Source: Dictyostelium discoideum (Eukaryota). Taken from it: 64,000 nt of DNA. The notes under the pieces are model-generated. The model was not told the origin of the DNA. It made no database searches and saw only the letters and a list, made by a program, of their open reading frames with translations. Numbering within the stretch: position 1 is the first letter of the stretch; the number at the start of each line of letters is the position of its first letter. The DNA lies in NCBI GenBank assembly GCA_000004695.1, contig CM000153.2, forward strand, positions 4,704,001 through 4,768,000, given 5' to 3'. Made by a program: the position numbers and the translations under genes. Below, piece after piece: positions 787 through 14,707 of the stretch.

Positions 787-1221
787 ATTAATAAAATAGG
801 ATTATAATTAAAAAATGTGTTAAGAAGAAAAACTTACATGAGGATCTAATGGCATATTTAAAAAATCATAAGTATCTTTAAACTCTTCATCAATAAGGGC
901 AGTAAGATTTTGTTGAGTTAATCTATTTGGAATATTTCTAATCATTAAAGATGTTCTTGTATCAACTCCACTAATTATATTCTCTGGAATTAAAATACAA
1001 GTTGGATCTACAGGTTCTTTTGGTTCCTTTGGTTCTTTTAATTCTTTCTTTCCTTTGGAATTGGTTGAATTTCTTAATGTTCCATTGTTTTGATTCTTTT
1101 GTTGTGCCTTTTGCTGTTGAATCTCTGATTCCAATTCTTTTCTTCTTCTTTCAAGTTGTTCAAGTTCTTGTTCATTTTCAAGTATACTAACTTCATAAGC
1201 TGTTTGATTATATTGATGTTT

Positions 1222-1265
<44 letters not shown>

Positions 1266-1266
1266 G

Positions 1267-1308
<42 letters not shown>

Positions 1309-1390
1309 TATACTATTATTCATATTATTATTATTATTATTAATATTTGAACTATTATTGTTATTATTATTATTATTATTATTATTAGTA

Positions 1391-1467
<77 letters not shown>

Positions 1468-1747
1468 GTTATCATTATTATTATTATCTAATATAGAACT
1501 ATATTGTGATTCTGCAAATAAATTAAGAGATGAATTTGTTGGTGAATTATTGTTACTATAATTTAATAGATTTGGAGTATTACAACCACTGTTATTATTA
1601 CTATTATTATTACTATTATTATTACTATTATTATTACTATTATTCTTATTGCTATAAACATATGAAGAGTAAGAAAAACTATTTCTAAAATTATTATTAT
1701 TATTATCATTATTATTATTATTATTTATATTATCATTGTTATTATTA

Positions 1748-1829
<82 letters not shown>

Positions 1830-4242
1830 TTATATTATTTAATTGATTATAACTACGATTTAAAAATAAATTTGTAGTTTTAATTTTATTAACAGCATCA
1901 TTTGTTGAAGAAAAGAAAGAATCAGGACCAATTAAATCAATGAAACCAGCACGAATAAAATTTTTCTTATGAGAATCACGTAATTTAACAAAACAAACTT
2001 GAATCATTCTTTTTTTATATTGAGATACCATTTCGTATAGGATTTGAATTGAAGAAGCATCGATTACAGGTATATTACGCATATCGAAAACTATACCATA
2101 TAAAGAGGATCTTTGATTAATTGGTAAATTTAACATTTCTGAAGGATGAGCTAATGCACTACCAATATTTTCAATTCTAAATAGGATTTCTTTAACTTGA
2201 CCGATATTTGCAAAATAAAGGGATTCTTCAAATCTAATGACCAAAACACCATCAACTTGTTGAGCCTCTGGGAAAATAATGATATCTTTAAATTTCGAAG
2301 TTGGAGCATCACCAGGTAATTTACCCAACACAGTGAAATGTGGTGCAGAAGATTGTCTAATAACCAATAGAATCGAAGCACCAATACTAACGACTAAACC
2401 AACCTCGACACTGAAAATAAAGGTACAAACAAAGGTGGCAGAGAATAATAGTAAATCTTTCCAAGCCCTTAGCTTCCAAAGGAAAATAATATCATGAACT
2501 TCAAATAAACCCAATGCGGCCACGAAAATGATAGAGCTCATAATTACTCTTGGTAAATATTGGAAAATTGGCATTAAAAACAATAGGGTGAATAATACTA
2601 CAATAAAAGTGACAGCACCAGCCAATTGAGTTTTTGCACCAGCTTTATCATTTACAGCGGATCTTGTCATTGATGCATAGATTGGATATGCTAAAAATAT
2701 TGAACCAAATATATTACTTGCACCAATTGCCACCAATTCTCTATTTGTTGAAACTTGATAATTATGTTTGGTTGCGAAATTCTTACTAACCGCCATTGAC
2801 TCAACGAAACCCACAATACTAATGAACAAAGCTGGACCAATCAATTGATTGACCATATCCCATCTATTTAATTTTGGTAATGTTGGTATTGGGAAACTTG
2901 TAGAATAATAACCCAACACAGCAATGCCTTTCTCTTTTAAATGAAAGCCAGCTGAAACTGAAATCCCCACCACTACCACCACCAAAATTGAAGGTATAAA
3001 AAAGATTATATGATGTATTATTTTAGTTCTAACCTCTGGACAACATCTCTTTTTAATTTGACCCATAATTAATAATGCTATAATTGAAACGACACTAATG
3101 ATCAATGATAGCTCATTGACTAAATCGAATTTCTTAAATATTAAAGGTATTTTACGCCAACCACTATCCGCAACTGATATGCCTAACAATGTATCCATTT
3201 GATCGAATAGAATTGTAAAAGCCACTGCATTAATGAAACCTCTAATCAAGGGACGTGATAAAACCTCTGAAAGGAACCCAAATCTAAGTAAACCTAAAAT
3301 CAATGAAATCACACCAACCAAAAATGCCAATATATTTGCAGATGCTATCATTTCATCAGTTGTAAGTGGTACATCAGCAGACTCACTTATCTCTTTCAAT
3401 GTTGTACCAACGATTAAACTAACCAATGCTTCAGGACCAACTGATAATTGTCTTGATGTGCCCAACACTGCATACATCAATAATGGCATTAAACCAGTGT
3501 ATAAACCATAGATTGGTGGTAATCCAACCAATAATGCATATGCTAAACTTTGTGGTACCAACATAATTGATGTTGTAACTCCTGCCGTTAAATCATTAAT
3601 TGCATTGGCTCTATAATCATATTTAGGTAACCATCCTAAAATTGGTATATAATATTTAACTTTATTCTTTAATCTTTTAATCTTTTCTTCTTTATTTTCA
3701 ACTTTTTTACCATAATTTTCTTCAAAATTTAAATCTAAATCTAAATTATTATTATTATTATTATTATTACTATTATTATTATTATTATTATTACTATTAC
3801 TATTAGCACTAATTAAAGAAGGTGAAACTATTGGTGATAATGATGGTGAAGATGAACTATCACTTTCAATATTACTATTATTTTGTAAATTCTTTTTATT
3901 TAATTTTGTTAAGAAACTACTAAATGTAAGTGGTGTTTCTTCAATTAATGGTCCTGATTTCAATGTACTATTGATTGCATCCATTGATTGACTTAATGGC
4001 ATACCATTATTATCAAGTAATATTGCATTGTTATTATTATTATTATTATTTTGTCTATTTCTTAAATGACCAGAAGAACTAATTGATAATGGTACACCAT
4101 TATACCTTCCATCTATTTCTATATTCTCTTCTCTTTGTTGTTCTTGTTGTTCTTGTGGTTGATAAGGTTGTTGTTGATTTGAAAGTAATGGTGATGATTC
4201 ATTCTTATCATTAGATGAACTCCAAAATTTCCAATTTACCAT
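484..4242 (-). CDS. SulP/SLC26-family anion (sulfate) transporter with a STAS domain, fused through a long Asn/Gln-rich linker to a C-terminal Mei2-type RNA-recognition motif (RRM_2, PF04059). Two exons: 4242..838 and 744..484.
   Basis: ATG at 4242. Exon 1 is the track ORF 820..4242. It shows SulP hallmarks (YYIPILGWLPKYDY..., LTAGVTTSIMLVPQSLAYALLVGLPPIYGLYTG, GPEALVSL) and a STAS domain (VLVIRFEESLYFANIGQVKEI ... IVFDMRNIPVIDASSIQIL). About 480 residues of poly-N/Q and a coiled coil follow. The RRM_2 start is then TSLMIRNIPNRLTQQNLTALIDEEFKDTYDFLNMPLDPH, ending on a GTAAGT donor (plus acttac 832-837). The intron is 837..745 and ends in tag. Exon 2 continues the RRM in phase (TKVSRGYAFINFKDHMNVYRFHQKFFHTRWKNYNHDKICEINYAIIQGEEAL...) to the stop at 484-486. 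Confidence 0.8.
745..837 (-). other. Intron, 93 nt, GTAAGT...TAG, splitting the Mei2-type RRM of the transporter gene.
   Basis: On the gene strand the donor is CAT|gtaagtttttcttc and the acceptor is aaaaaaaatag|ACAAAAGTAAGTCGTGGTTATGCA. Phase 0 is preserved and domain homology continues across the junction (YDFLNMPLDPH | TKVSRGYAFINF). Confidence 0.8.
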
Positions 4243-4743: not shown

Positions 4744-7700
4744 TTATTTAAATAAATGAGATTTCTTGGAAAGTTTTACAATACCAGTGATAACATCATC
4801 TTTAATACCAAAAGATTTCAAAACTGATCCACCAGTTGTAGAATTACATTTTGAAATGATAACCTCGAATGAAACTGTAGTAGAAGGTTTGAGGAGTTTA
4901 ACGAATATCTTGATAAGTTCTAAAATAAAGAATCTAAAGTTATCAGATAATTGACCTCCAAGAGTTGAATCGAATTTAATTAAAGAACTTCTTGAGACAC
5001 CCAATGCTAAAGAAACCTTTTTAACAGTTTCATAACTTGTTGGTGAATTTACAATCATCAACAAATCTGAATATAAAGTAACTATTTCTTTTTCAAATAA
5101 TTGTTGTTGTTTTTGTTTCATTATATCATTTGATTTATCTTCTTTTTTAGATTTTTTCTTTTTTTCTTTTTCCTCTTTTTCTGTTTCCAATGCCCAACTT
5201 TTTCCAATGATTGATGATGATGAGTTAAAGATATCTTCATTTTTGGATTTTGATAATTTTGATCTTGATCCATCTTTTGACAATGATAAAGAGGATGACG
5301 ATGAAGACGATGATGATAAATACTTTGGTGGTGGTGATACGTAATCTTCATTATCGTCAAATAAACCAAAACCACAATATTCTTCTTCATCAGACTCTTC
5401 TTGTTCTTTTTCTTTTCTTTCTTGTTGCTTTTGAGATTGTAGCTGTGGTTGTGGTTGTGACTTTGGTGGTGGTGGACAATAATCATCGTATTCGCCAAAT
5501 AATCCAAAACCACAATCCCCTTCTCCATCAGACTCTTCTTGTTCTTTTTGTGGTCCTGATTTTGGTTGTTGTGGTTGTATTTGTTTTGATTCATATAAGG
5601 ATTGAGACAATACCCTTTGTAATTGATAATCTTCTTCATCACCAAAAAGACCAAATCCCATGTCTTCATCTTCATCATATGATTCCTTTTTTTTAGGTAA
5701 CGATGTTGGCTTTGAAACTGTTGTTGTTGCTGCTGCTTTTGTTGTTGTTGTTGATGATGTTGGATAGTCACCAAAAAGATCAAAACCCATATCTTCATCA
5801 CCCCACTCTTCTTCTTCGTCTTTTGGTTGAGATTTGGCTGCTAAATAGGAAGCAGGAGTAGAAGAAGCTGTAACAAGAGAAGTAATAGCATTGGGTACAC
5901 CTCCAAAAGAGTATGAACTTCCACTACCGCCGCCACCACTTCCTCCTTTCTTTACTGGTTCGTCTGACCAAGCATCATCGTCGTCGTCGTCTTCGTCATT
6001 TTCAATACAATCAATAGCTACTCTTCTACGACTTAGAGAATTTATTAATTGTGCAGAAAGATTATCAATAGTTTTGGCTTCTTCTTTTAATTTCTCTGGA
6101 ACTGCTTTTAATGAATATCCTCGTTTTATTGAATTCAAAAGAGAACCTTCATCACTTTTCAAAGAGTTTGCCTCTATCGAATTATTTTTTGAAGTTGATG
6201 ATGATGGTGGTGGTGGTGGTGGTGGACCAGATGATGATGGTTGTGGTGGTAAAGTAGTTCGTTTAAACCTTGGCATTCCATCTGATTTCTTTGAAATATT
6301 TCTTTCTTCTTGTAGATTTTCTTTTTCAGGACTATAACCAATATGAGCCGAAGATCTTCTCATCATTCCTCCAAATACTTGTGGAGCTGGTGGTGCTGGA
6401 CTAAAGACATTAGTGGATACACTTGGTCTTGGAGCATTTGGCAATGGTGGTGGTGTTGGTGTTGGTGTTGGTGTTGGAGTTGATGAGAAAGAAACTGTAC
6501 TCATTCTGGAATATCCAGCAACCATTGGTTTACTTGGTAAATTTATTTCAGAGAGGGTACTTTCTTCTTTGGCTTTAGATTTTGAAAATGATGGTGATGA
6601 TGGGGAATATGATGTTAAAACTGGTAATTTGGATGGTTTTGTTGGTGCATAAGATGGTGATACTGGAGAATAGGATGGTATTGTTGGTGCATATAGTAGT
6701 GATGTTGGAGTATATGATGGTGATACTGGAGAATATGATTGCGAAGTGGAAGCATATAGTGGAGAAGTTGAATAAGATGGTGATGTTGGGGAATAAGATG
6801 GTGATGTTGGGGAATAGGATGGTGATGTTGGGGAATAGGATGGTGATGTTGGGGAATAGGATGGTGATGTTGGGATATAGAATGGTGATGTTGGGGAATA
6901 AGGTTGAGAAGCTTGGAAAAATAATGATGGTGGTGGTGCACCACGTCCAAGTGATGTTGATGGTGGTGGTGGTGGTTGTGGTGGTGGTGGAGCACCACGT
7001 CCAAAAGCGGTACCAATATTTCCTCCCCTTCCACCTCTTGATGATCCTATACTTCCACCTCTTGATGATCCTCCTCTACCTCTACTACTATTGTTTGAAC
7101 GAATATTTCCTTCAGGAGATGGAGATCTAGATCTAGTTACACATCTATATTTATCAATTGATATTCCTCTTAAACTTACTTCACCTCTACTACTATTGTT
7201 TGAACGAATATTTCCTTCAGGAGATGGAGATCTAGATCTAGTTACACATCTATATTTATCAAATGATATTCCTCTTAAACTTACTTCATTACTAAAACTA
7301 TCAGATTCACTATCACTTCCACTTTCACTTTGATTTTCACTAACTCCTCCTTCATAATCTATATCAGTATTATTATTATTTGATACAATTTGATTAACAA
7401 CAATTGGTTTATAAGTTGTTGTTGCTTTTTTAATACCAAGTTTTTTAGGAGTTATTGACCATTGTTTAGAAGAAATAGTTGATTCAATTTGTGGTTCATC
7501 TTTTGGTTCATTATCAACATTATTTTCAGGTTGATGTTGATGACGTTGATCAAGGTTAAATTCATTAATTTCTTGTTCATCTTCAATAAATTGTAAACAT
7601 TCAGTTGTAGAATCACGAATTAATTGAAGTAAAAGTGTTGTATCTTTATAAGAATCTTCAGATAAGGTATCCAATTCAGAGATTGCTTTGTCAAATGTAT

Positions 7701-10432
7701 TCTTTGAAATTTGAATTGATTTTTCAAAATCACCATTCTCTTTATAATAGTTTGCAGATAATAATGATAATTGTAATAAAATCGGATTGGTTGGTGATAA
7801 TGAATTTTCTGAACGTTGTAAAGCAGACTTTAAAGTTGATTCAAACTTTTCACACCATTGTTTCTTTGAATATTTATTATCATCACAATTTAATAAACTT
7901 TTATAAACTGTACATTGATTATTCATTAAACTAATAATTGCCTCTTCATTATTTGAATGATTTGTTGATGATTCTAATAATCTTAATAAACCTTTACCTT
8001 GATAAATTATATCCTCTTTTAATTTCTTTTTCTCTCTTAATAATTTACTTGGTGTTGTTGGTGTAGTAGTAGTTGTTGTTGTTGAATCATCATTAATTGA
8101 TAATTTATCAACTCTTTTTGAAATTAAATTATTAATTGTATCTGAAAGTAAATTTAATTCTTTCATTGAAAATTCACCAAATGTATCTGAAATTTGATGA
8201 AATACATTAATTGTATCAGAGAACTTGCTATTTGAATGATATTGTTCAATTAATTTGGATAATTGATCACGTTTATTCAATAGAATTGGATCATTTGGAT
8301 CTTGATCAATACCTTGAGATTTATCTTCCCATGCAATGTATGGTAGAGAATCAACAATAGTTTGAGAGATAATCGATTGAATTGGTGGTAATTTTGAGAA
8401 TGTTTCATGTTTTTCCCTCTTTTCAACTGCAACAAAACTTGTGAATGGTGTTACAATCGAGTATTTAATGGATAGGTCGATGACATCATTCTTTTTCTTT
8501 AATTTAATTAAATCATGTTCATGTTTATTTTGACTATAGGTACCATCTTGATATTCTCTAATCATTGAACGAGCAGCTAAACGATGAATTAAATTACCCT
8601 TTATGAAACCAATCTCTGGTGTATGAACAACGTTGGTGATTAAACCACCACCAGGTGCTTGGCAAATCAATGTTGCACGAGTACAAATACCAGAGAAAGC
8701 ATACATAACTTGACGTTCTTTCTTAAATATTGAAGTTATAGTAGCAGGTGATTGAACTATGGAATTGGTATCACTTGAATCGAATTTCACTGAAATATTC
8801 GACATTGCGGGTTGAGTTAACCGTTGAAGTTGATCAATGATTTTCTTTGGATTTGGACGTTTATTTGTTTGAATAAACTCTGGATAACCACCACCTAAAC
8901 GGCAAATACTCTTTACGAAATGTCTACTACAATGCTCACCAATACCAAATGCAAACATTCTACAATAGGGTGATGCTTTTTTAACCAACATTTGAACCAA
9001 TTCTTCATTGGCTACATTACCATCTGTGAATAGTAAAATATTATGTGGATTGGTTGGTTTAGCTTTCTCTGCCAACAAATAAAGTGATTGTAATGGTTGA
9101 TGTAATAATGTACCACCATAGGATGTTTTTAAATGATTGATATGGCTCCAAGCAATTTGTAAATTTGATTCAGTCGGTGGTACACCAATACCGAAAAGCC
9201 AGTCAAAGGTATCACCAAAACAAACCACATCGAATAACACCTTTTGCATACCACGTAAATTTGAAATAGTGATACGAACTGCACGTAATAAATCCTCAAA
9301 TGCATCACCAGCCATCGAAGATGATAAATCAATTAATAAAGTAACCATAGTATGGCTATCCTTCATAGTATTATCAATATCCAATTTTGGATAAAATGCC
9401 AACATACTTGCATGATGACCTTTCTCATCAACCTCAACCCACATTCTTGGTGAATAAGGCTCCTCCAAACCAATCAATAATTGGAAATTCTTATCTAAAT
9501 ATTGATTATCTTGATTATTTAATTCAATGGTTGCTTTTGTATGAGTACGTTTTATACGAACGTCATGAGTTGGTGAAATTAATTTTACAATATTATAAGG
9601 CATTTCAATACCGACCGAAATGGATAAATCAGATTGTTTTTGTGCCAATTCTGTCACTTGAACAGTTGATGTTACCGATTGAGTATTACTACTTGAGGAT
9701 TGCAATCTTTGCTTTGGTGTGATTGAACGTGGTAATACAAAACTAATATCTAAACCATCGATTGATAGCTCAGTAACATAAACTATCTTAATTAAAACAT
9801 CACAATTTGGTGGTAAATTACCAACTGAAACTGTGAAAACATCAGGTTTATCCTCATCCATTAAATATGCACCATGACCAGCTGCAACTGCTTCACGATA
9901 CTCTCTTTGTGCTTTCTCCTTCTCTTTACATTCACCAATTATATGTTTACCATTTACATAAGCTTCGAAACCACAAACTGCTCCCATTTCATCCAATGGA
10001 AAAACATACTTTGCTTCAATCATATTCTTTGAATTATTTTGATAATGTTGATAAATTGTAACTTCACCAATTAAATCTAAAATTTTACCTTTAACATGAA
10101 CAGATTTTAATGGTATAGCATTATCACCACCACCATTCTTTGAAATTAAACCAATTTCTTGATTATCATCATCATCATTACTATCATCAATTAATGATTT
10201 TTGAGGTAGTGAATTTGGAACTTTCTCAGATTCAATAGTTGGTTTAACTGATTCTTTTGAAATTTCAAGTAATTTATCATTATTTGATGATAATGATGAT
10301 TTTAATATTGGTGGTATTGTTAATGAATTTAAATCATCAAATTCAATTAGGTATTGAATTTTTTGTTGTTTTGAATCATAAATTACAATTTCATCATCAA
10401 TAAAATCAGATTGTTTAACTGTATTATTTGAC

Positions 10433-10466
<34 letters not shown>

Positions 10467-12594
10467 CAACACCTTGAACACTATCAAAACCTTTTGGTGG
10501 TTTTGATAATTGAGTTTGATGAGTTGTATATTTTTTAATTTGACCTAATGCAACTGAACAAATAAACATATACTTTGAAAGTGTTTTTGTTGATGCTTTA
10601 CAATATTGAATTGAAGTGGATGGTTTAACACCAAAATAAATACCACTACCCAAATAACCAATATCTCTTCTACCAGCACCAATTGATGTTGATACATTTG
10701 GTGTTAATAAACCTCTACTTAGTATACCCAATATATTCGATGGATTACTACCATGATAAAGTGTTTTCAAATTACCAACTTCAAAATTATAATTATCTTC
10801 TTCTTTTCTTATAATTTTAAAAATATTTTTAATTTTTATTAAATTATTATTATTATTATTATTATCTATACAATTTTCATTATTATTATTATTATCATTA
10901 CCATTACTTTTTTTAATTGATTGTTGTGGTTGTGTTAAACCTTCAATTTTTGTACCACCTTTAATTTGATCAGTTATACGTTTAAAATCTTTTGAAGATT
11001 TATCTAATTGATTAATTTGACAACGTAATGCACGATATTTTGCCATTTCACCACTACTTGCAGAAGTTAATGTTTTTGAAACACCACTTAATGATTCACC
11101 AACTGATAAAATATCTTTCATTAATTGTACAGATTCTTGAATATCATTTAATAGTTCATATGAATTATTAAATTTACCACCTGGTGGTTTCAATTGTGGT
11201 AATGATCTAAAGATTTCATCGATTAAATCGGTTGATTCTTTACTATCAATTTTACCACCATTACCTCTTAACACTGTTGATAATTGAAATAATGATAATT
11301 CAGCTTTATCAACTTGCATTAATGTAATGTCACCCATTGATGTTTTAATTGAACCTTCAGGTGAAAGGTGAAGTTTACTACCATTACCAAACTTATTACC
11401 CAATGTTGATATAGCTTCATCATATAATATTTTAATTAATTCATGAATTGGTTTTGGAATTTCATTATTAATGTTATTACTATCATCAATATTATTGGTG
11501 GTGGTTATTGTTGTATCATCAAATAATTTATTATAACATAATTCTTGTAATTTATTAGAACCAATTAATGTTGAACCTAATTGAAATTTTGAATATTTTT
11601 TATTTATTAAATGATCTTTAAATATCTCATTATATTGGTCCAATGAATTCTCCAAATTTGTAAATGGTATCCATTCTTTAACTGAATCATTTATTTTATT
11701 TGCATCTAAACTACCATAATTTAAAAATACTCTATAATATGATTGTGTTTGGTCACCACTACCACCACTATTATCACTATTACCAGTTTTAATTAATTCT
11801 AAAATTTTACCTGCAACATGTAATTCCAAACAAATAAAACTTTCAGCTTTTGGTGATATTAAAACATTATGTTTAACAACATGATATTTAGATTCTGTTG
11901 GAAATTTATCGTTTTCAACTTTATTATTATATTTAATTCTTTCATATTGCTGTTGTTGCTGCTCACCATTAGTTGATGATGATGATGATGATGATGGATC
12001 TTCTAATAAATTTGAAAAATCCAATGATTTATAATGATATTCTTTAATATTATATAATGAAACTAATGAATATTCATTTGGTGATAATAAATTACCATTT
12101 GAAATTGAATCTTCTAAATATCTTTTTGACACAATTGGAATATTCAATTTAATTGCCTTTTTAATATTGGATGATAAAGTTTCTAAATTTATATTCTTTT
12201 TTTCTTCTTCATCTTGATAACTATTATTATTATTATTCTTTTCATCAACTTTTATTAAATCATTAAAATCACCACTAAAAATATAATAGTTAATCTAAAA
12301 ATAATTTTTATATAAAAAAAAAATAAAAATAAAAAAATAAAAATAAAATTAAATGTTTCACAAATAATTATTATATGTGTGTTAATAGTTGAATGATTTA
12401 AATTTTTTTTTTTTTTAATTTTTTTAAATAAATAATAAAAATAACAAACTTACTTTTTGATTTAAAATCATTGAGACATTACCACCATGTGATTCTACAT
12501 ATGATTGTAAAACCTTTTTTGATTTTAAGCCACTATTTCCACAATCCAAATAAAATGTAAGATTATTTAACACAGAGTTTTTATTTACAACCAT
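4744..12594 (-). CDS. Giant vault-PARP (PARP4)-like poly(ADP-ribose) polymerase with BRCT, PARP catalytic, VIT and vWA domains, a long C-terminal extension carrying RGG, CTD-like heptads and four P-stalk tail motifs, and a final ~100-aa C-terminal domain. Two exons: 12594..12454 and 12294..4744.
   Basis: Exon 1 is ATG 12594..12454, [47 protein letters not shown], which is BRCT-like. The donor is GTAAGT (plus acttac 12448-12453) and the acceptor is tttttag at 12295. Exon 2 continues [15 protein letters not shown]... in phase into the track ORF 4744..12147, whose listed start is a TTG. The PARP signature is [19 protein letters not shown] ... GIYFG ... [11 protein letters not shown] ... [22 protein letters not shown] is [21 protein letters not shown]...[46 protein letters not shown]. 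vWA is [26 protein letters not shown]...[18 protein letters not shown]. Confidence 0.85.
7081..7290. repeat. Two tandem copies of a 105-bp unit inside the PARP CDS.
   Basis: The unit ctactactattgtttgaacgaatatttccttcaggagatggagatctagatctagttacacatctatatttatcaa(t/a)tgatattcctcttaaacttacttca occurs twice, at about 7081 and 7186. The two copies are nearly identical. They encode a duplicated 35-aa block, EVSLRGIS(F/I)[26 protein letters not shown]. Confidence 0.8.
12295..12453 (-). other. Intron, 159 nt, in the BRCT-coding 5' end of the PARP gene.
   Basis: GTAAGTTTGTTATTTTTATT ... TTATATTTTTAG. Both flanks are phase 0, and the BRCT-like sequence resumes as [10 protein letters not shown]. The unspliced reading hits an in-frame TAA within 30 nt. 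Confidence 0.7.
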
Positions 12595-13095: not shown

Positions 13096-14707
13096 TTATT
13101 TAGAAAAATATTGTTGTTGATTGTATTGTTGACGTTGTGGTGAATTTTGTTGTTGTTGTTGTTGTTGTAGTTGTTGTTGATTTTGTCTAATTATAAATTG
13201 AACTTTTTTAACTGTTGCTCTAATAATGAATTGATCTCTACTTAGTGATCTAACATTTTTAAGGTATTCTTCCAAAGATATTCTATTTGAATGTAATGCT
13301 TTATCTAAGTAGTAGAGTAAATCTTCGATGGTTGAATCATCAGAGACCAATTTTAACAATTGTTTTGAGAGTGAATCTTTAGGACCCAATATTTGATCGA
13401 TATCAATATTTGAATCTGATTTATCATTTTCGTTTATCCATTTCTCCAATTGTTCAATGTTTTCATTCAATTGATCGATTTGACTATTGTAAGTTGCCAA
13501 TTGATTCGATAACTCCTCCTTCTCAAGTAATTTTTTCTTTGATAACTCTTCCAATGATTTGTTATGAGCTTCGAAATCCTTAATCTCTAATGATGTAGTG
13601 TCATAAAATTTCGATAATAATTCTTGCAATTTAATTGTACATTGATCAACCATTTCACTTTTTTTATCAATAACTGGTTGTGGTGGTAAAGGTGGTAATG
13701 GTTTAACTGATGGTGATGTTTGTTGTTGTTGCTGTTTTGCTGCTGTTGGTTCTGTATATGCTGGTGGTGGTGATGGTTGTTGTGGTGGTGGTATTATATT
13801 ATTATTTTGTTGTTGTTGTTGTTGTTGAGTTGGTGGTGGGGGTGGTGATGTTTGTGGTTGTTTTGGTGGGGGTAAAGATGATGTATTATTAGTTTTATTT
13901 TTAATTGAATCGTACGATGGTGGTGGTTGTGTATATGATGAGGAATTTGAAGTACTTGGTGATGAACCATATGGTGGTGGTGGTTGTTGTTGTTGTGCTG
14001 CCACATTATTATTGGTTGGTGATGAACCATAAGGTGGTGGTGATATATTATTTTGTGGTGGTTGTGGTTGTTGTTGTTGTGATACTCTTGTCTCTAATGG
14101 TGGTTTAAAACTAAATGCATCACATAACATTTTTTAACAATGACCCATCGTTGAATTGGAACTCCAACTTGATATATATGGATGATAAACTAATCCCTGT
14201 AAATTTACATGGTGATGATTTTTTACAATCCTCATCTCTGGTGTTGGATCTAAAACCATTGTTGGGAATTCTTGTGGATAGTTTAATGGTACCCAAACTA
14301 TAATTGGTAAATAATAATTAATACCTTTAAAACAAATTGGAATTGTACCTTTTATACATATTAAATTAACTCTATCTTTAATAATAATTTTTAAAAATAA
14401 AATAGTGAAAAAAAAAAAAAAAAAAAATAATATAAATTATAAAATTAATAATAAATTTTTTTATTTTTTTTTTATTTTTTTTTCTTTTTTTTTACTTACT
14501 TGGTATATTTTCATAAAACGGTGATAAATTTGGGAATAAATGAAATGTTTCTTTTAAATCTTTACTTATTCTTAGTGGATCTCTATAAGCTCTAATATAA
14601 TTAAGAAAAGTTGATAGAGTATGCATTTTATTATCCACTATGGCTAAAGTTGGATTAACCATTTGTTGTTGATGTGCATGCATTGGGTATCCATGATGAC
14701 CATACAT
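13096..14707 (-). CDS. tsg101: Tsg101/Vps23 (ESCRT-I) orthologue with a UEV domain, Pro/Gln-rich linker, coiled coil and C-terminal steadiness box. Exons 14707..14500 and 14375..13096. The reading frame is interrupted by an in-frame TAA at 14134-14136.
   Basis: Exon 1 runs from ATG 14707: MYGHHGYPMHAHQQQMVNPTLAIVDNKMHTLSTFLNYIRAYRDPLRISKDLKETFHLFPNLSPFYENIP. It ends on a GTAAGT donor (plus acttac 14494-14499) in phase 1. The acceptor is aaag at 14376. Exon 2 continues NRVNLICIKGTIPICFKGINYYLPIIVWVPLNYPQEFPTMVLDPTPEMRIVKNHHHVNLQGLVYHPYISSWSSNSTMGHC. A TAA follows, and then the track ORF from ATG 14130, MLCDAFSFKPPLETRV... C-terminally this ORF carries ...EDLLYYLDKALHSNRISLEEYLKNVRSLSRDQFIIRATVKKVQ, which matches the TSG101 C-terminal steadiness box EDTIFYLGEALRRGVIDLDVFLKHVRLLSRKQFQLRAL. 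UEV homology (YLPYLHEW versus YHPYISSW, MIVVFGDEPP versus MLCDAFSFKPP) runs straight through the stop. Confidence 0.7.

Follow-up and report, generated by a model that had tools for sequence, protein, structure and literature searches.

Copies of the ribosomal P-stalk tail in the linker of a Dictyostelium discoideum PARP4 orthologue: a conserved array and a possible toxin bait

The C-terminal tail of the ribosomal P-stalk proteins uL10 (P0), P1 and P2 is among the most conserved eukaryotic peptides, and it is the part with which the ribosome catches translation factors, serving as the docking peptide of eEF2, eEF1A, eIF5B and eRF3. The same tail is the docking point of ricin and Shiga toxin, and N-glycosidases of this type require the stalk peptide for access to the ribosome. 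To our knowledge, the tail has been known solely from ribosomal P proteins. Shiga toxin Stx2a touches only the last six residues of the tail, GFGLFD, and its binding to the stalk with its five tails was about 60-fold stronger than to one peptide by itself (PMC9823235). Of the cytosolic vaults of D. discoideum, about 8% contain an 80S ribosome whose orientation is fixed, and MVPA-TurboID enriched four PARPs (log2FC 1.4-3.5), one of them annotated as a vault PARP, together with 69 of 79 ribosomal proteins; enrichment of eEF2 (0.45) and eEF1A (0.41) was slight (PMC13100048). In mammalian PARP4, positive selection has acted repeatedly on the disordered region equivalent in position to the linker described below, and a role as the interface with pathogens has been proposed for this region (Daugherty et al. 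2014, PMC4038475).

The stretch of DNA analysed here, referred to as the window, comprises 64 kb of the D. discoideum genome, and the features of the gene under study are collected in Table 1. The results showed that the host of the motifs is the Dictyostelium PARP4 orthologue. Its best database matches were PARP4 proteins, the identity of its core to PARP4-annotated proteins of animals and of non-dictyostelid amoebozoans was 32-39%, and the arrangement by which PARP4 (vault PARP, PARP clade 5) is recognised, namely BRCT, a mid-protein PARP domain, VIT and VWA, was found by Pfam. The original prediction of a vPARP-like protein was thus borne out by Pfam and by a motif check, which placed it as a PARP4-type ADP-ribosyltransferase with the H-Y-E motifs retained. 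The exon junction agreed with that of the D. purpureum orthologue in a sequence comparison, and all stalk-tail copies lie within one 7.5-kb exon of this BRCT-PARP-VIT-VWA protein. No exact match to the spliced product was found in the protein collection.

Table 1. Features of the PARP4 gene and its product (positions counted from the first letter of the window)
Feature	Position	Strand	Evidence or remark
PARP4 (vault PARP) orthologue gene	4744..12594	minus	product 2563 aa; minus-strand ORF, database matches
Exon 1	12454..12594	minus
Intron	12295..12453	minus	GTAAGT donor, TTTTAG acceptor
Exon 2	4744..12294	minus
BRCT domain, intron inside	12069..12594	minus	Pfam BRCT_2 36.8 bits, BRCT 32 bits; spliced N-terminus
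PARP catalytic domain	10339..10845	minus	PF00644 E=1.7e-29; H-Y-E motifs LYHGS, GIYF, DDEIVIY
VIT domain	9778..10110	minus	PF08487 E=1.3e-35
von Willebrand A domain	8875..9345	minus	PF13768 / PF00092
14-3-3-like domain	7606..8238	minus	PF00244 E=9e-20, 71.6 bits vs cut-off 33.2
Two tandem 35-aa repeats, then RGG box	6994..7287	minus	read from sequence
RNA polymerase II CTD-like heptads	6631..6906	minus	YSPTSPS and variants, ~12 units; PF05001 33.6 bits vs 20.3, five stretches
WAVE/SCAR-type VCA-like module	5956..6228	minus	poly-proline, WH2-like helix, central helix LSRRRVAI, acidic run with Trp
Whole four-tail array	5332..5832	minus	spacing 43-49 residues; linker predicted disordered
Stalk-tail copy 1, 17 residues	5764..5814	minus	core 5770-5790; PF00428 23.9 bits, profile positions 56-88/88
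Stalk-tail copy 2	5635..5685	minus	core 5641-5661; PF00428 20.3 bits; 15-residue P0 stretch aligned
Stalk-tail copy 3, 17 residues	5488..5538	minus	core 5494-5514; PF00428 15.9 bits
Stalk-tail copy 4, 17 residues	5350..5400	minus	core 5356-5376; PF00428 19 bits
C-terminal helical domain	4747..5100	minus	position equivalent to animal PARP4 MINT (MVP-interacting)

The motif consists of an acidic run followed by the seven-residue core (M/C)GF(G/D)LF(G/D), and the 17-residue copies include the acidic run. All four peptides quoted at the outset were present in the translation of the minus-strand open reading frame 4744..12147, and the span of 5340-5800 first given for them was correct overall but about 14 bases short at its upstream end (true 5350-5814). 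The six frames of the window contained no further match to the motif. Shuffling (20,000 shuffles) gave a mean of 0.00035 motifs for the whole open reading frame and 0.00015 for its last 568 residues, in comparison to the four observed. The copies terminate 204 to 342 residues ahead of the C-terminus and are each followed by G/D-D-Y; copies 3 and 4 form a 138-nt tandem duplication, the array having been expanded by local tandem duplication, and a Thr/Ala-rich, hinge-like stretch lies upstream of copy 2.

The original proposal that the motifs are the P0/P1/P2 tail was confirmed, all four being true copies of the hinge-plus-tail peptide of uL10/P1/P2. For the whole protein, the Pfam-A family PF00428 (Ribosomal_60s) scored 46.7 bits against a gathering cut-off of 28.1, and when the copies were scanned singly each aligned to the C-terminal end of the profile (starting at position 56, 64, 70 or 71 and running to 88 of 88) with 15.9-23.9 bits. 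A PDB sequence search returned uL10/P1/P2 C-termini only; the stretch DEDMGFGLF is identical in mammalian P0, and the hinge was alignable too. Across 25 proteins, 36 copies shared a 13-residue consensus followed by (D/G)D, with the hydrophobic GFGLF as the conserved core and, in 17 of the 36, a Ser at -4, which is where the P-protein tail EESDDDMGFGLFD has its conserved serine.

All five further dictyostelid orthologues had the motif, as did every amoebozoan orthologue examined, and it was also found in PARP4-like proteins of a sponge (Ephydatia), molluscs (Aplysia, Elysia, Mercenaria, Mactra), a brittle star (Amphiura), a millipede (Chamberlinius), two fishes (Amphiprion and, weakly, the lungfish Protopterus), Mastigella and a Euglena transcript, the animal gene models being predictions and the Euglena transcript a possible contaminant. 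The motif was lacking from about 170 vertebrate PARP4 sequences, the exceptions being Amphiprion and the weak Protopterus copy. Conservation of the motif columns was 0.60 in comparison to 0.36 for the rest of the linker (Mann-Whitney p=1e-10), so that the tails stand as conserved islands in an otherwise diverged linker, and PARP4-like proteins of distant eukaryotes retain the same peptide. The orthologue comparison therefore rules out a recent low-complexity accident, which had been put forward as the way in which the motif might prove fortuitous. A search of the 195-aa repeat region against a collection of 5.8 billion proteins gave no match at E<=1e-3, a level that so short a motif cannot reach in a database of this size. 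The motif had also been thought new for a PARP, and a literature search found no paper linking PARP4 with the P-stalk, or describing a PARP4 decoy or mimic or GFGLFD in it, in agreement with that view; the stalk tail in PARP4 is a conserved, so far undescribed feature.

The original prediction overlooked the context in which the tails occur, and this context alters how they are read. The linker of about 270 aa that bears them is predicted to be disordered, with AF2 pLDDT values of 32-45 over the array in comparison to 75-89 in the next domain. Pol II CTD heptads and the VCA-like module share this linker with the tails, and the 14-3-3-like domain lies immediately ahead of it. The VCA-like module precedes the array, and its order and its C and A sequences were kept in the amoebozoan orthologues checked, the WH2 part being visible in some only: the Acanthamoeba orthologue alone passed the Pfam WH2 cut-off, with 26.2 bits, and that of Cavenderia scored 16.7 bits. 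Pfam WH2 gave no match on the D. discoideum segment, and the VCA call for this protein is for that reason based on the orthologues and on reading of the sequence; AF2 predicted helices in the segment. The putative order WH2-central-acidic/Trp is that of the WASP/WAVE family, and the LSRRRVAI segment is closely similar to the WAVE sequence LSRRIAVEYSDSEDD...DDWSD. The PARP4 protein carries none of the N-terminal regulatory domains of WASP, WAVE, WASH or WHAMM. By this likeness to WAVE, the module, which is a neighbour of the stalk-tail array and stands outside the finding proper, is a candidate Arp2/3 activator.

Precomputed Pfam lists revealed further inserted domains in PARP4 linkers, Roc being one of those in orthologues or paralogues. 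In the Pfam scans, the actin fragment covered profile positions 2-66 of 410 in all five proteins checked. Animal PARP4 proteins showed HSP70 fragments at profile positions 381-526 and 417-517, a synaptobrevin fragment at positions 21-56, ubiquitin at full length and EF-hand domains. The histone H3 tail RTKQTARKSTGGKAPR is present in Dreissena, with a close variant in a metagenomic PARP4-like protein, and within one species the paralogues hold different sets of inserts. Fragments of host targets are thus fused into PARP4, and their repertoire varies among orthologues and paralogues, which is the pattern by which integrated decoys are known. The linker contains many peptides copied from host proteins, the tails being one of them, and it is this that suggested to us the alternative of a bait or decoy.

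We infer, as the best reading, that the array is a multivalent stalk-tail mimic which docks binders of the stalk tail onto PARP4. It would imitate the multivalent ribosomal stalk by presenting several GFGLF tails on flexible tethers, and proteins with a stalk-tail pocket would therefore be captured with avidity and held beside the enzyme's catalytic domain; should the C-terminal domain bind the major vault protein, as happens in animals, the captured protein would then be inside the vault. In our preferred reading, to which we give a probability of about 0.4, the tails would be bait for ribosome-inactivating toxins, the expected ligands being N-glycosidases of the ricin/Shiga-toxin type. The tails would belong to a collage of pieces copied from conserved host proteins; it differs between lineages, and in Dictyostelium may also include the 14-3-3-like domain, the Pol II CTD heptads and the VCA module, and in animals the actin N-terminal fragment, the HSP70 substrate-binding fragment, ubiquitin, calmodulin, the histone H3 tail and the synaptobrevin fragment. 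Most simply read, such a collage would consist of integrated decoys that intercept toxins or effectors aimed at the copied targets. The multivalency on which the known ligand Stx2a depends, the recurrence of the same host fragments in PARP4 linkers and the proposal of the mammalian linker as a pathogen interface all point in this direction, and Shiga toxin is reported to kill bacterivorous amoebae (PMC13119142).

The case for bait is nevertheless built from architecture and analogy, and several observations weigh on it. The tails are internal and run on into G/D-D-Y where the ribosomal tail has a free C-terminus, so that some ligands may reject them. The dictyostelid C-terminal domain is a putative MINT equivalent by its position, and the gene could not be linked to a particular one of the vault-enriched PARP accessions (Q54HY5, Q54LJ4, Q55GU8 and Q8I7C6). 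The animal side of the pattern comes from predicted gene models, and the reach to Euglena from the possibly contaminant transcript. VCA and poly-proline modules are not what toxins typically target; they bind host machines and would fit a recruitment platform better, and the abundant eEF1A and eEF2 should bind the tails in any case, which makes an endogenous role equally natural.

A broader form of the bait reading, which we regard as tentative and rather doubtful, is that PARP4 might have served eukaryotes since ancient times to trap or sense toxins and effectors. Its linker decoys (stalk tail, actin N-terminus, ubiquitin, calmodulin, 14-3-3, HSP70 fragment, H3 tail, SNARE fragment and CTD heptads) would attract pathogen enzymes for which the copied host proteins are targets or activators, and the captured enzymes would be placed beside the ADP-ribosyltransferase, possibly within the vault cage. 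If true, it would give the vault a defensive role and account for the positive selection in the mammalian PARP4 linker.

The strongest rival, over which we favour the bait reading but which keeps a substantial share of our belief, is that endogenous translational GTPases (eEF2, eEF1A, eIF5B, eRF3) are the ligands of the tails, which would bring these factors, or ribosomes that carry them, to PARP4. The outcome could be ADP-ribosylation, of eEF2 for example, or the loading or orienting of ribosomes inside vaults. The established role of the stalk tail in docking GTPases and the intact catalytic H-Y-E motifs are consistent with such recruitment, as are the 80S ribosomes within vaults, the enrichment of PARPs and ribosomal proteins near them and the adjoining VCA and poly-proline modules, which also bind abundant host machines. 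Recruitment, however, leaves unexplained why the animal inserts are targets rather than binders (actin N-terminus, H3 tail, HSP70 piece). The enrichment of eEF2 and eEF1A near vaults was small, the cryo-ET paper is silent on elongation factors and on the stalk, and the roughly 170 vertebrate PARP4 proteins do without the motif (bar the two fishes above) yet vertebrates have vaults. We know of no PARP4 substrate of the translational-GTPase kind.

It is improbable, in our estimate, that the tails are automodification sites or autoinhibitory pseudo-substrates, with stalk tails as substrates of PARP4. Glu, Asp and Ser, acceptor residues for ADP-ribose, are plentiful in the copies, and several of the other inserts (H3 at Ser10, ubiquitin, actin) are ADP-ribosylation targets elsewhere, but conservation is centred on the GFGLF binding epitope rather than on the acceptor residues. 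What would be gained from many unrelated pseudo-substrates is hard to see, and our search found no evidence of the stalk as a PARP4 substrate.

Slightly less probable again is a different acidic-aromatic short linear motif that merely resembles the stalk tail, either an Arp2/3-binding acidic motif or one of the DFGxO type bound by clathrin-adaptor ears. The array lies about 70 residues past the acidic-Trp motif of the VCA module, copy 1 contains EEEEW, and F-G-x-hydrophobic is similar to the gamma-ear motif. Against this, the full 13-residue consensus, with its Met and the Ser at -4, fits the P-protein tail, and it is on account of this consensus that LC3-interacting motifs, gamma-ear DFGxO motifs and extra Arp2/3 acidic motifs were rejected. 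In 35 of 36 copies, Gly rather than an acidic residue stands before the Phe, and at position +3 D, S, A, C or N occurs in 17 of 36, unlike the DFGxO motif of AP-1/GGA gamma-ears. The Trp of copy 1 was not conserved in D. purpureum, and the animal PARP4 proteins whose surroundings were read had no VCA beside the motif.

Very little weight is given to the idea that free tails titrate translation factors or GCN2 off ribosomes and thereby tune translation or the integrated stress response. P-stalk tails do activate GCN2 and translational GTPases (PMC6421407, PMC11624264), but with five tails per ribosome, and ribosomes far more numerous than a 2563-aa PARP, global titration would be implausible, and competition with the stalk gives no reason for a fusion to PARP-VIT-VWA. 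Neutral low-complexity expansion with no function, for which the repeat-rich Dictyostelium genome and the recent 138-nt duplication of copies 3 and 4 might speak, is barely credible and is largely refuted by the orthologue comparison, the motif being kept in Amoebozoa, Metazoa and the Euglena transcript while the flanks diverged, and about 0.0003 copies being expected from the shuffles.

A conserved multicopy tail array in a non-ribosomal enzyme offers a testable handle on the function of PARP4 and of the vault. The array bears on whether cells own an ADP-ribosyltransferase that acts on translation factors; reports that a cellular enzyme ADP-ribosylates eEF2 go back a long time, and none known to us names the enzyme. 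It bears equally on integrated decoys against toxins in eukaryotes outside plants, and the repeated appearance of actin, HSP70, ubiquitin, calmodulin and H3 fragments in PARP4 linkers would, if confirmed, represent a new principle for the family. By analogy with the stalk, the array could also serve as a ready-made natural multivalent candidate ligand for ricin and Shiga toxin.

In comparison to vertebrate PARP4, the D. discoideum protein shares the BRCT-PARP-VIT-VWA core and the long disordered region between VWA and the C-terminal domain, and it adds the 14-3-3-like domain, the CTD heptads and the VCA-like module. In comparison to the P-stalk tails of uL10 (P0), P1 and P2 (PF00428), it has the same acidic run with a serine followed by MGFGLFD, the flexible hinge and the multicopy arrangement, with five tails on the stalk and four in the PARP4 protein. 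The PARP4 copies differ in that they are internal rather than extreme C-terminal tails with a free carboxylate, are embedded in an ADP-ribosyltransferase, have Cys in place of Met in two copies and, in dictyostelids, have a conserved G-D-Y after LF; the protein is BRCT-PARP-VIT-VWA-14-3-3 outside the tails by Pfam and has neither the P1/P2 dimerisation domain nor the uL10 rRNA-binding domain, the Pfam coverage being confined to profile positions 56-88. The decoys of plant NLRs (RRS1-WRKY, RGA5/Pik-1 HMA) and the mammalian tripwires (NLRP1, CARD8) are similar in that host pieces targeted by pathogens are fused elsewhere and that the repertoire differs by lineage and paralogue, whereas the carrier here is a PARP and not an NLR, and the likeness of PARP4 to these systems is one of architecture.

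The four stalk-tail peptides named in the original prediction were all found, letter for letter, in a minus-strand open frame of 2467 codons running from 12147 to 4744 of the AT-rich window, which carries poly-Asn/Gln tracts, and no further match to the stalk tail was found in any frame across the window. A short upstream exon is joined to this frame at a junction that agrees with the D. purpureum orthologue, and the spliced product is 2563 aa long. Pfam assigned to the product a BRCT domain, a PARP catalytic domain (E=1.7e-29, with the H-Y-E motifs intact), a VIT domain (E=1.3e-35), a VWA domain, a 14-3-3-like domain and Ribosomal_60s, and the top database matches were PARP4-annotated proteins from amoebae and animals. 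The host is thus a PARP as proposed, and on these sequence criteria we assign the gene as the Dictyostelium vault-PARP orthologue, membership of the PARP4 family being judged by the core architecture and the C-terminal vault-docking (MINT) domain being putative. Because the PARP domain through the stalk tails forms a single uninterrupted exon, the fusion cannot be put down to an error in predicting the gene. The table also includes two other minus-strand genes. The sulfate permease frame runs past long poly-Asn/Gln tracts and closes, at its very end, with positions 1-38 of a Mei2-type RRM_2 domain; it represents an unusual fusion or else a pair of genes run together over an unrecognised intron or boundary.

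Coordinates of the PARP4 gene features and of other genes in the window
Feature	Position	Strand	Remarks
Sulfate permease with STAS domain	820-4242	-	single ORF
Stalk-tail copy 4	core 5356-5376; with acidic run 5350-5400	-	translation
Stalk-tail copy 3	core 5494-5514; with acidic run 5488-5538	-	translation
Stalk-tail copy 2	core 5641-5661; with acidic run 5635-5685	-	translation
Stalk-tail copy 1	core 5770-5790; with acidic run 5764-5814	-	translation
Poly-proline, WH2-like helix, central helix LSRRRVAI, acidic run with Trp	5956-6228	-	
Pol II CTD-type heptads (YSPTSPS)	6631-6906	-	about twelve; PF05001 33.6 bits
Two 35-aa tandem repeats, then RGG box	6994-7287	-	perfect register, rich in RSRSPSP
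14-3-3-like domain	7606-8238	-	Pfam E=9e-20
Exon 2 acceptor TTTTAG	12295-12300	-	exon 2 first base 12294, frame restored
Exon 1	12454-12594	-	GTAAGT donor at end
Vps23/Tsg101 core domain gene (neighbour)	13096-14130	-	PF09454, E=2.4e-25; preceded by Pro/Gln-rich region

In 20,000 composition-preserving shuffles, 0.00015-0.00035 motifs per sequence were expected in comparison to the four observed, each with a core of seven residues. The score of the whole protein against PF00428 (Ribosomal_60s) was 46.7 bits in comparison to a gathering score of 28.1, and single copies scored 15.9-23.9 bits each, aligned to the final 18-33 positions of the profile. A phmmer search of the repeat region against all PDB chain sequences gave ten matches, all to uL10/P0, P1 or P2 and always at the extreme C-terminus of the P protein, which together with the profile score confirmed that the motif is the C-terminal tail of these proteins; copy 2 aligned to the P0 tail and the Thr/Ala-rich stretch preceding it to the Ala-rich stalk hinge. 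Based on these profile-end and hinge alignments, the copies have the appearance of captured stalk segments, hinge and tail together, and the likeness goes beyond a loosely acidic-aromatic one. In the DNA, copies 3 and 4 form a 138-nt tandem duplication (77-85% identity), and copies 1 and 2 have a common 32-nt core that is 91% identical. The protein itself was ruled out as a ribosomal P protein, since the P-protein N-terminal domains are missing and the tail is internal; what we claim for the array is that it may work like a stalk tail, not that it is a stalk protein.

The original prediction was open to the objection that the motif might be absent from other dictyostelids, and the opposite was found, the tail being present in all five other dictyostelid orthologues: four copies in D. 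purpureum, and in each of the remaining four between one and three strict copies, accompanied by degenerate ones. Balamuthia, Acanthamoeba and Mastigella carry one copy apiece. Among animal PARP4-like proteins, whose gene models are predictions, the tail was found in the sponge Ephydatia and the gastropod Aplysia (two copies each), the gastropod Elysia, the bivalves Mercenaria and Mactra, the brittle star Amphiura, the millipede Chamberlinius and the clownfish Amphiprion, with a weak copy in the lungfish Protopterus and degenerate versions in Batillaria, Magallana, Pecten and the fish Chaetodon, while about 170 other vertebrate PARP4 sequences were without it. Three environmental proteins also carry the tail, as does a Euglena gracilis transcript (PF00428 35.7 bits) which may be a contaminant. 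The census came to 36 distinct copies in 25 proteins, with the Gly, Phe, Leu and Phe essentially invariant and (D/G)D at the end. Serine occupies position -4 in 17 of the 36 copies, the place of the conserved P-protein tail serine, which is the phosphorylated CK2 site. Constitutive phosphorylation of the P-stalk tails has been described (PMC11624264). In the dictyostelid linker alignment, conservation was 0.60 for motif columns versus 0.36 for the surrounding linker (Mann-Whitney p=1e-10), a difference to be read with the caveat that the aligner anchors on the motifs themselves, and AlphaFold2 pLDDT was 32-45 over the entire array. The tails are short linear motifs under selection within a predicted disordered tether. 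The dictyostelid tails also carry a conserved G-D-Y extension (LFGDY; 5350-5814, minus strand, and the dictyostelid orthologues), which is absent in ribosomal tails and in animal PARP4 copies.

From the VWA domain to the C-terminus, the array is preceded by the 14-3-3-like domain, the 35-aa repeats with the RGG box, the CTD heptads, poly-proline and the WH2-like, central and acidic segment, and is followed by a helical domain with a confident AlphaFold2 model (pLDDT values of 75-89 and of 90); the C-termini of the Acanthamoeba and Balamuthia orthologues align with animal MINT. The final helices of the 14-3-3-like domain are near-identical to canonical 14-3-3, and the repeats and RGG box are RS-like and RGG-like, as in the tails of RNA-binding proteins. 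CTD heptads were also found in PARP4 of other amoebae, of the molluscs Dreissena and Nucella and of the sponge Sycon. The WH2-central-acidic segment resembles the VCA of WAVE/SCAR in its arrangement and is a putative Arp2/3-activating module; the arrangement recurs in the amoebozoan orthologues checked, where the central and acidic-Trp parts are kept and WH2 is visible in most but not necessarily all, with Pfam WH2 above cut-off in the Acanthamoeba protein only and giving no match on the D. discoideum copy.

Inserts in animal PARP4 linkers were taken from precomputed Pfam lists and then re-scanned. Full-length ubiquitin was found in many gastropods and bivalves, Acanthamoeba and Euglena; EF-hand pairs (calmodulin-like) in Nucella and Pinctada; and a 14-3-3 domain in a sponge, amphioxus and a starfish. 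Actin and HSP70 recur as fragments rather than whole domains: the same N-terminal piece of actin (2-66 of the 410 profile positions) in each of the five proteins checked from bivalves, a gastropod and a sponge (orthologues P0011, P0128, P0135, P0142 and P0146), which by position should presumably include the DNase-I-binding loop, and the HSP70 substrate-binding region (381-526 and 417-517) in two bivalves. A synaptobrevin SNARE-motif fragment (21-56 of 89; residues 1904-1939 of Amphiura P0138) and a Roc/Ras GTPase fragment (residues 1879-1932 of Mytilus P0168) scored at or barely above the Pfam cut-off. The histone H3 N-tail was found at residues 1480-1500 of the Dreissena PARP4-like protein P0011 (read as RTKQTARKSTGGKAPR and as RRTKQTARKSTGGKAPR), with a close variant RTRTKQTARRSTGGRAPP at residues 1898-1915 of metagenomic P0238, which has a stalk tail in the same protein, and a degenerate version near 1471 of Nucella P0009. 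Ubiquitin, WAVE and H3 were compared by eye with reference sequences. The insert sets differ between same-species paralogues (Nucella P0009/P0129, Amphiura P0138/P0148, Mytilus P0136/P0168). The stalk tail thus belongs among the recurrent pieces of a variable collage copied from very conserved host proteins.

PARP4-like proteins with appended 14-3-3, actin and ubiquitin-related domains were reported by Perina et al. 2014 (PMC4245714), who found 14-3-3 in other amoebae and did not list D. discoideum; the stalk tail is mentioned neither there nor by Citarelli et al. 2010. Our literature search gave no paper combining 'PARP4' and 'P-stalk', in agreement with the expectation that no PARP had been described with this tail, and the sole paper with 'GFGLFD' and 'PARP' was a ricin review. 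For several orthologues PF00428 is already listed in automated Pfam annotation, and in the searchable literature we found the tail in PARP4 neither described nor interpreted. We rate as new a known docking peptide in a conserved, multivalent and previously undescribed context.

Given the motif identity, multiplicity, predicted disorder, conservation and protein context established for the array, it may be proposed that the array imitates the multivalent ribosomal stalk, capturing proteins that have a stalk-tail pocket and setting them beside the PARP domain, and that docking of the C-terminal domain to the vault, should it occur, would carry the captured proteins into it. The human PARP4 enzyme has an open active site and acts as a mono-ADP-ribosyltransferase (PMC10711553). 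Our preferred purpose, with a probability of about 0.4, is that of bait, by which the array would lure stalk-tail binders as an integrated decoy, the expected prey being ribosome-inactivating proteins. Stx2a grips solely the final six residues, GFGLFD, and bound a five-tailed stalk about 60-fold better than a single peptide (PMC9823235); bacterivorous amoebae are killed by Shiga toxin (PMC13119142).

A somewhat less probable purpose is that the array recruits the cell's own translational GTPases, or ribosomes carrying them, for ADP-ribosylation or vault loading, which would agree with the adjoining VCA and poly-proline binders and with vault-ribosome data: 2026 cryo-ET of D. discoideum showed an 80S ribosome in fixed orientation inside 8% of cytosolic vaults, and the proteins enriched by MVPA-TurboID included several PARPs as well as 69 of 79 ribosomal proteins, with eEF2 (log2FC 0.45) and eEF1A (0.41) only slightly enriched in the source data (PMC13100048). 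We consider the readings as a pseudo-substrate, as another motif, as a competitor of the stalk or as neutral sequence to be less probable. The bait purpose is preferred because the collage includes targets and cofactors rather than binders, because the same fragments recur while the repertoire differs among paralogues, and because the equivalent mammalian region is under recurrent positive selection, which Daugherty et al. 2014 (PMC4038475) found confined to the disordered interval between the VWA and MVP-binding domains and for which they proposed contact with pathogen factors. Should the collage prove to be one of decoys, the finding would be more fundamental than a known peptide in a new context. 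In its target fragments, their recurrence, the variation among paralogues and the positive selection, the PARP4 collage resembles integrated decoys.
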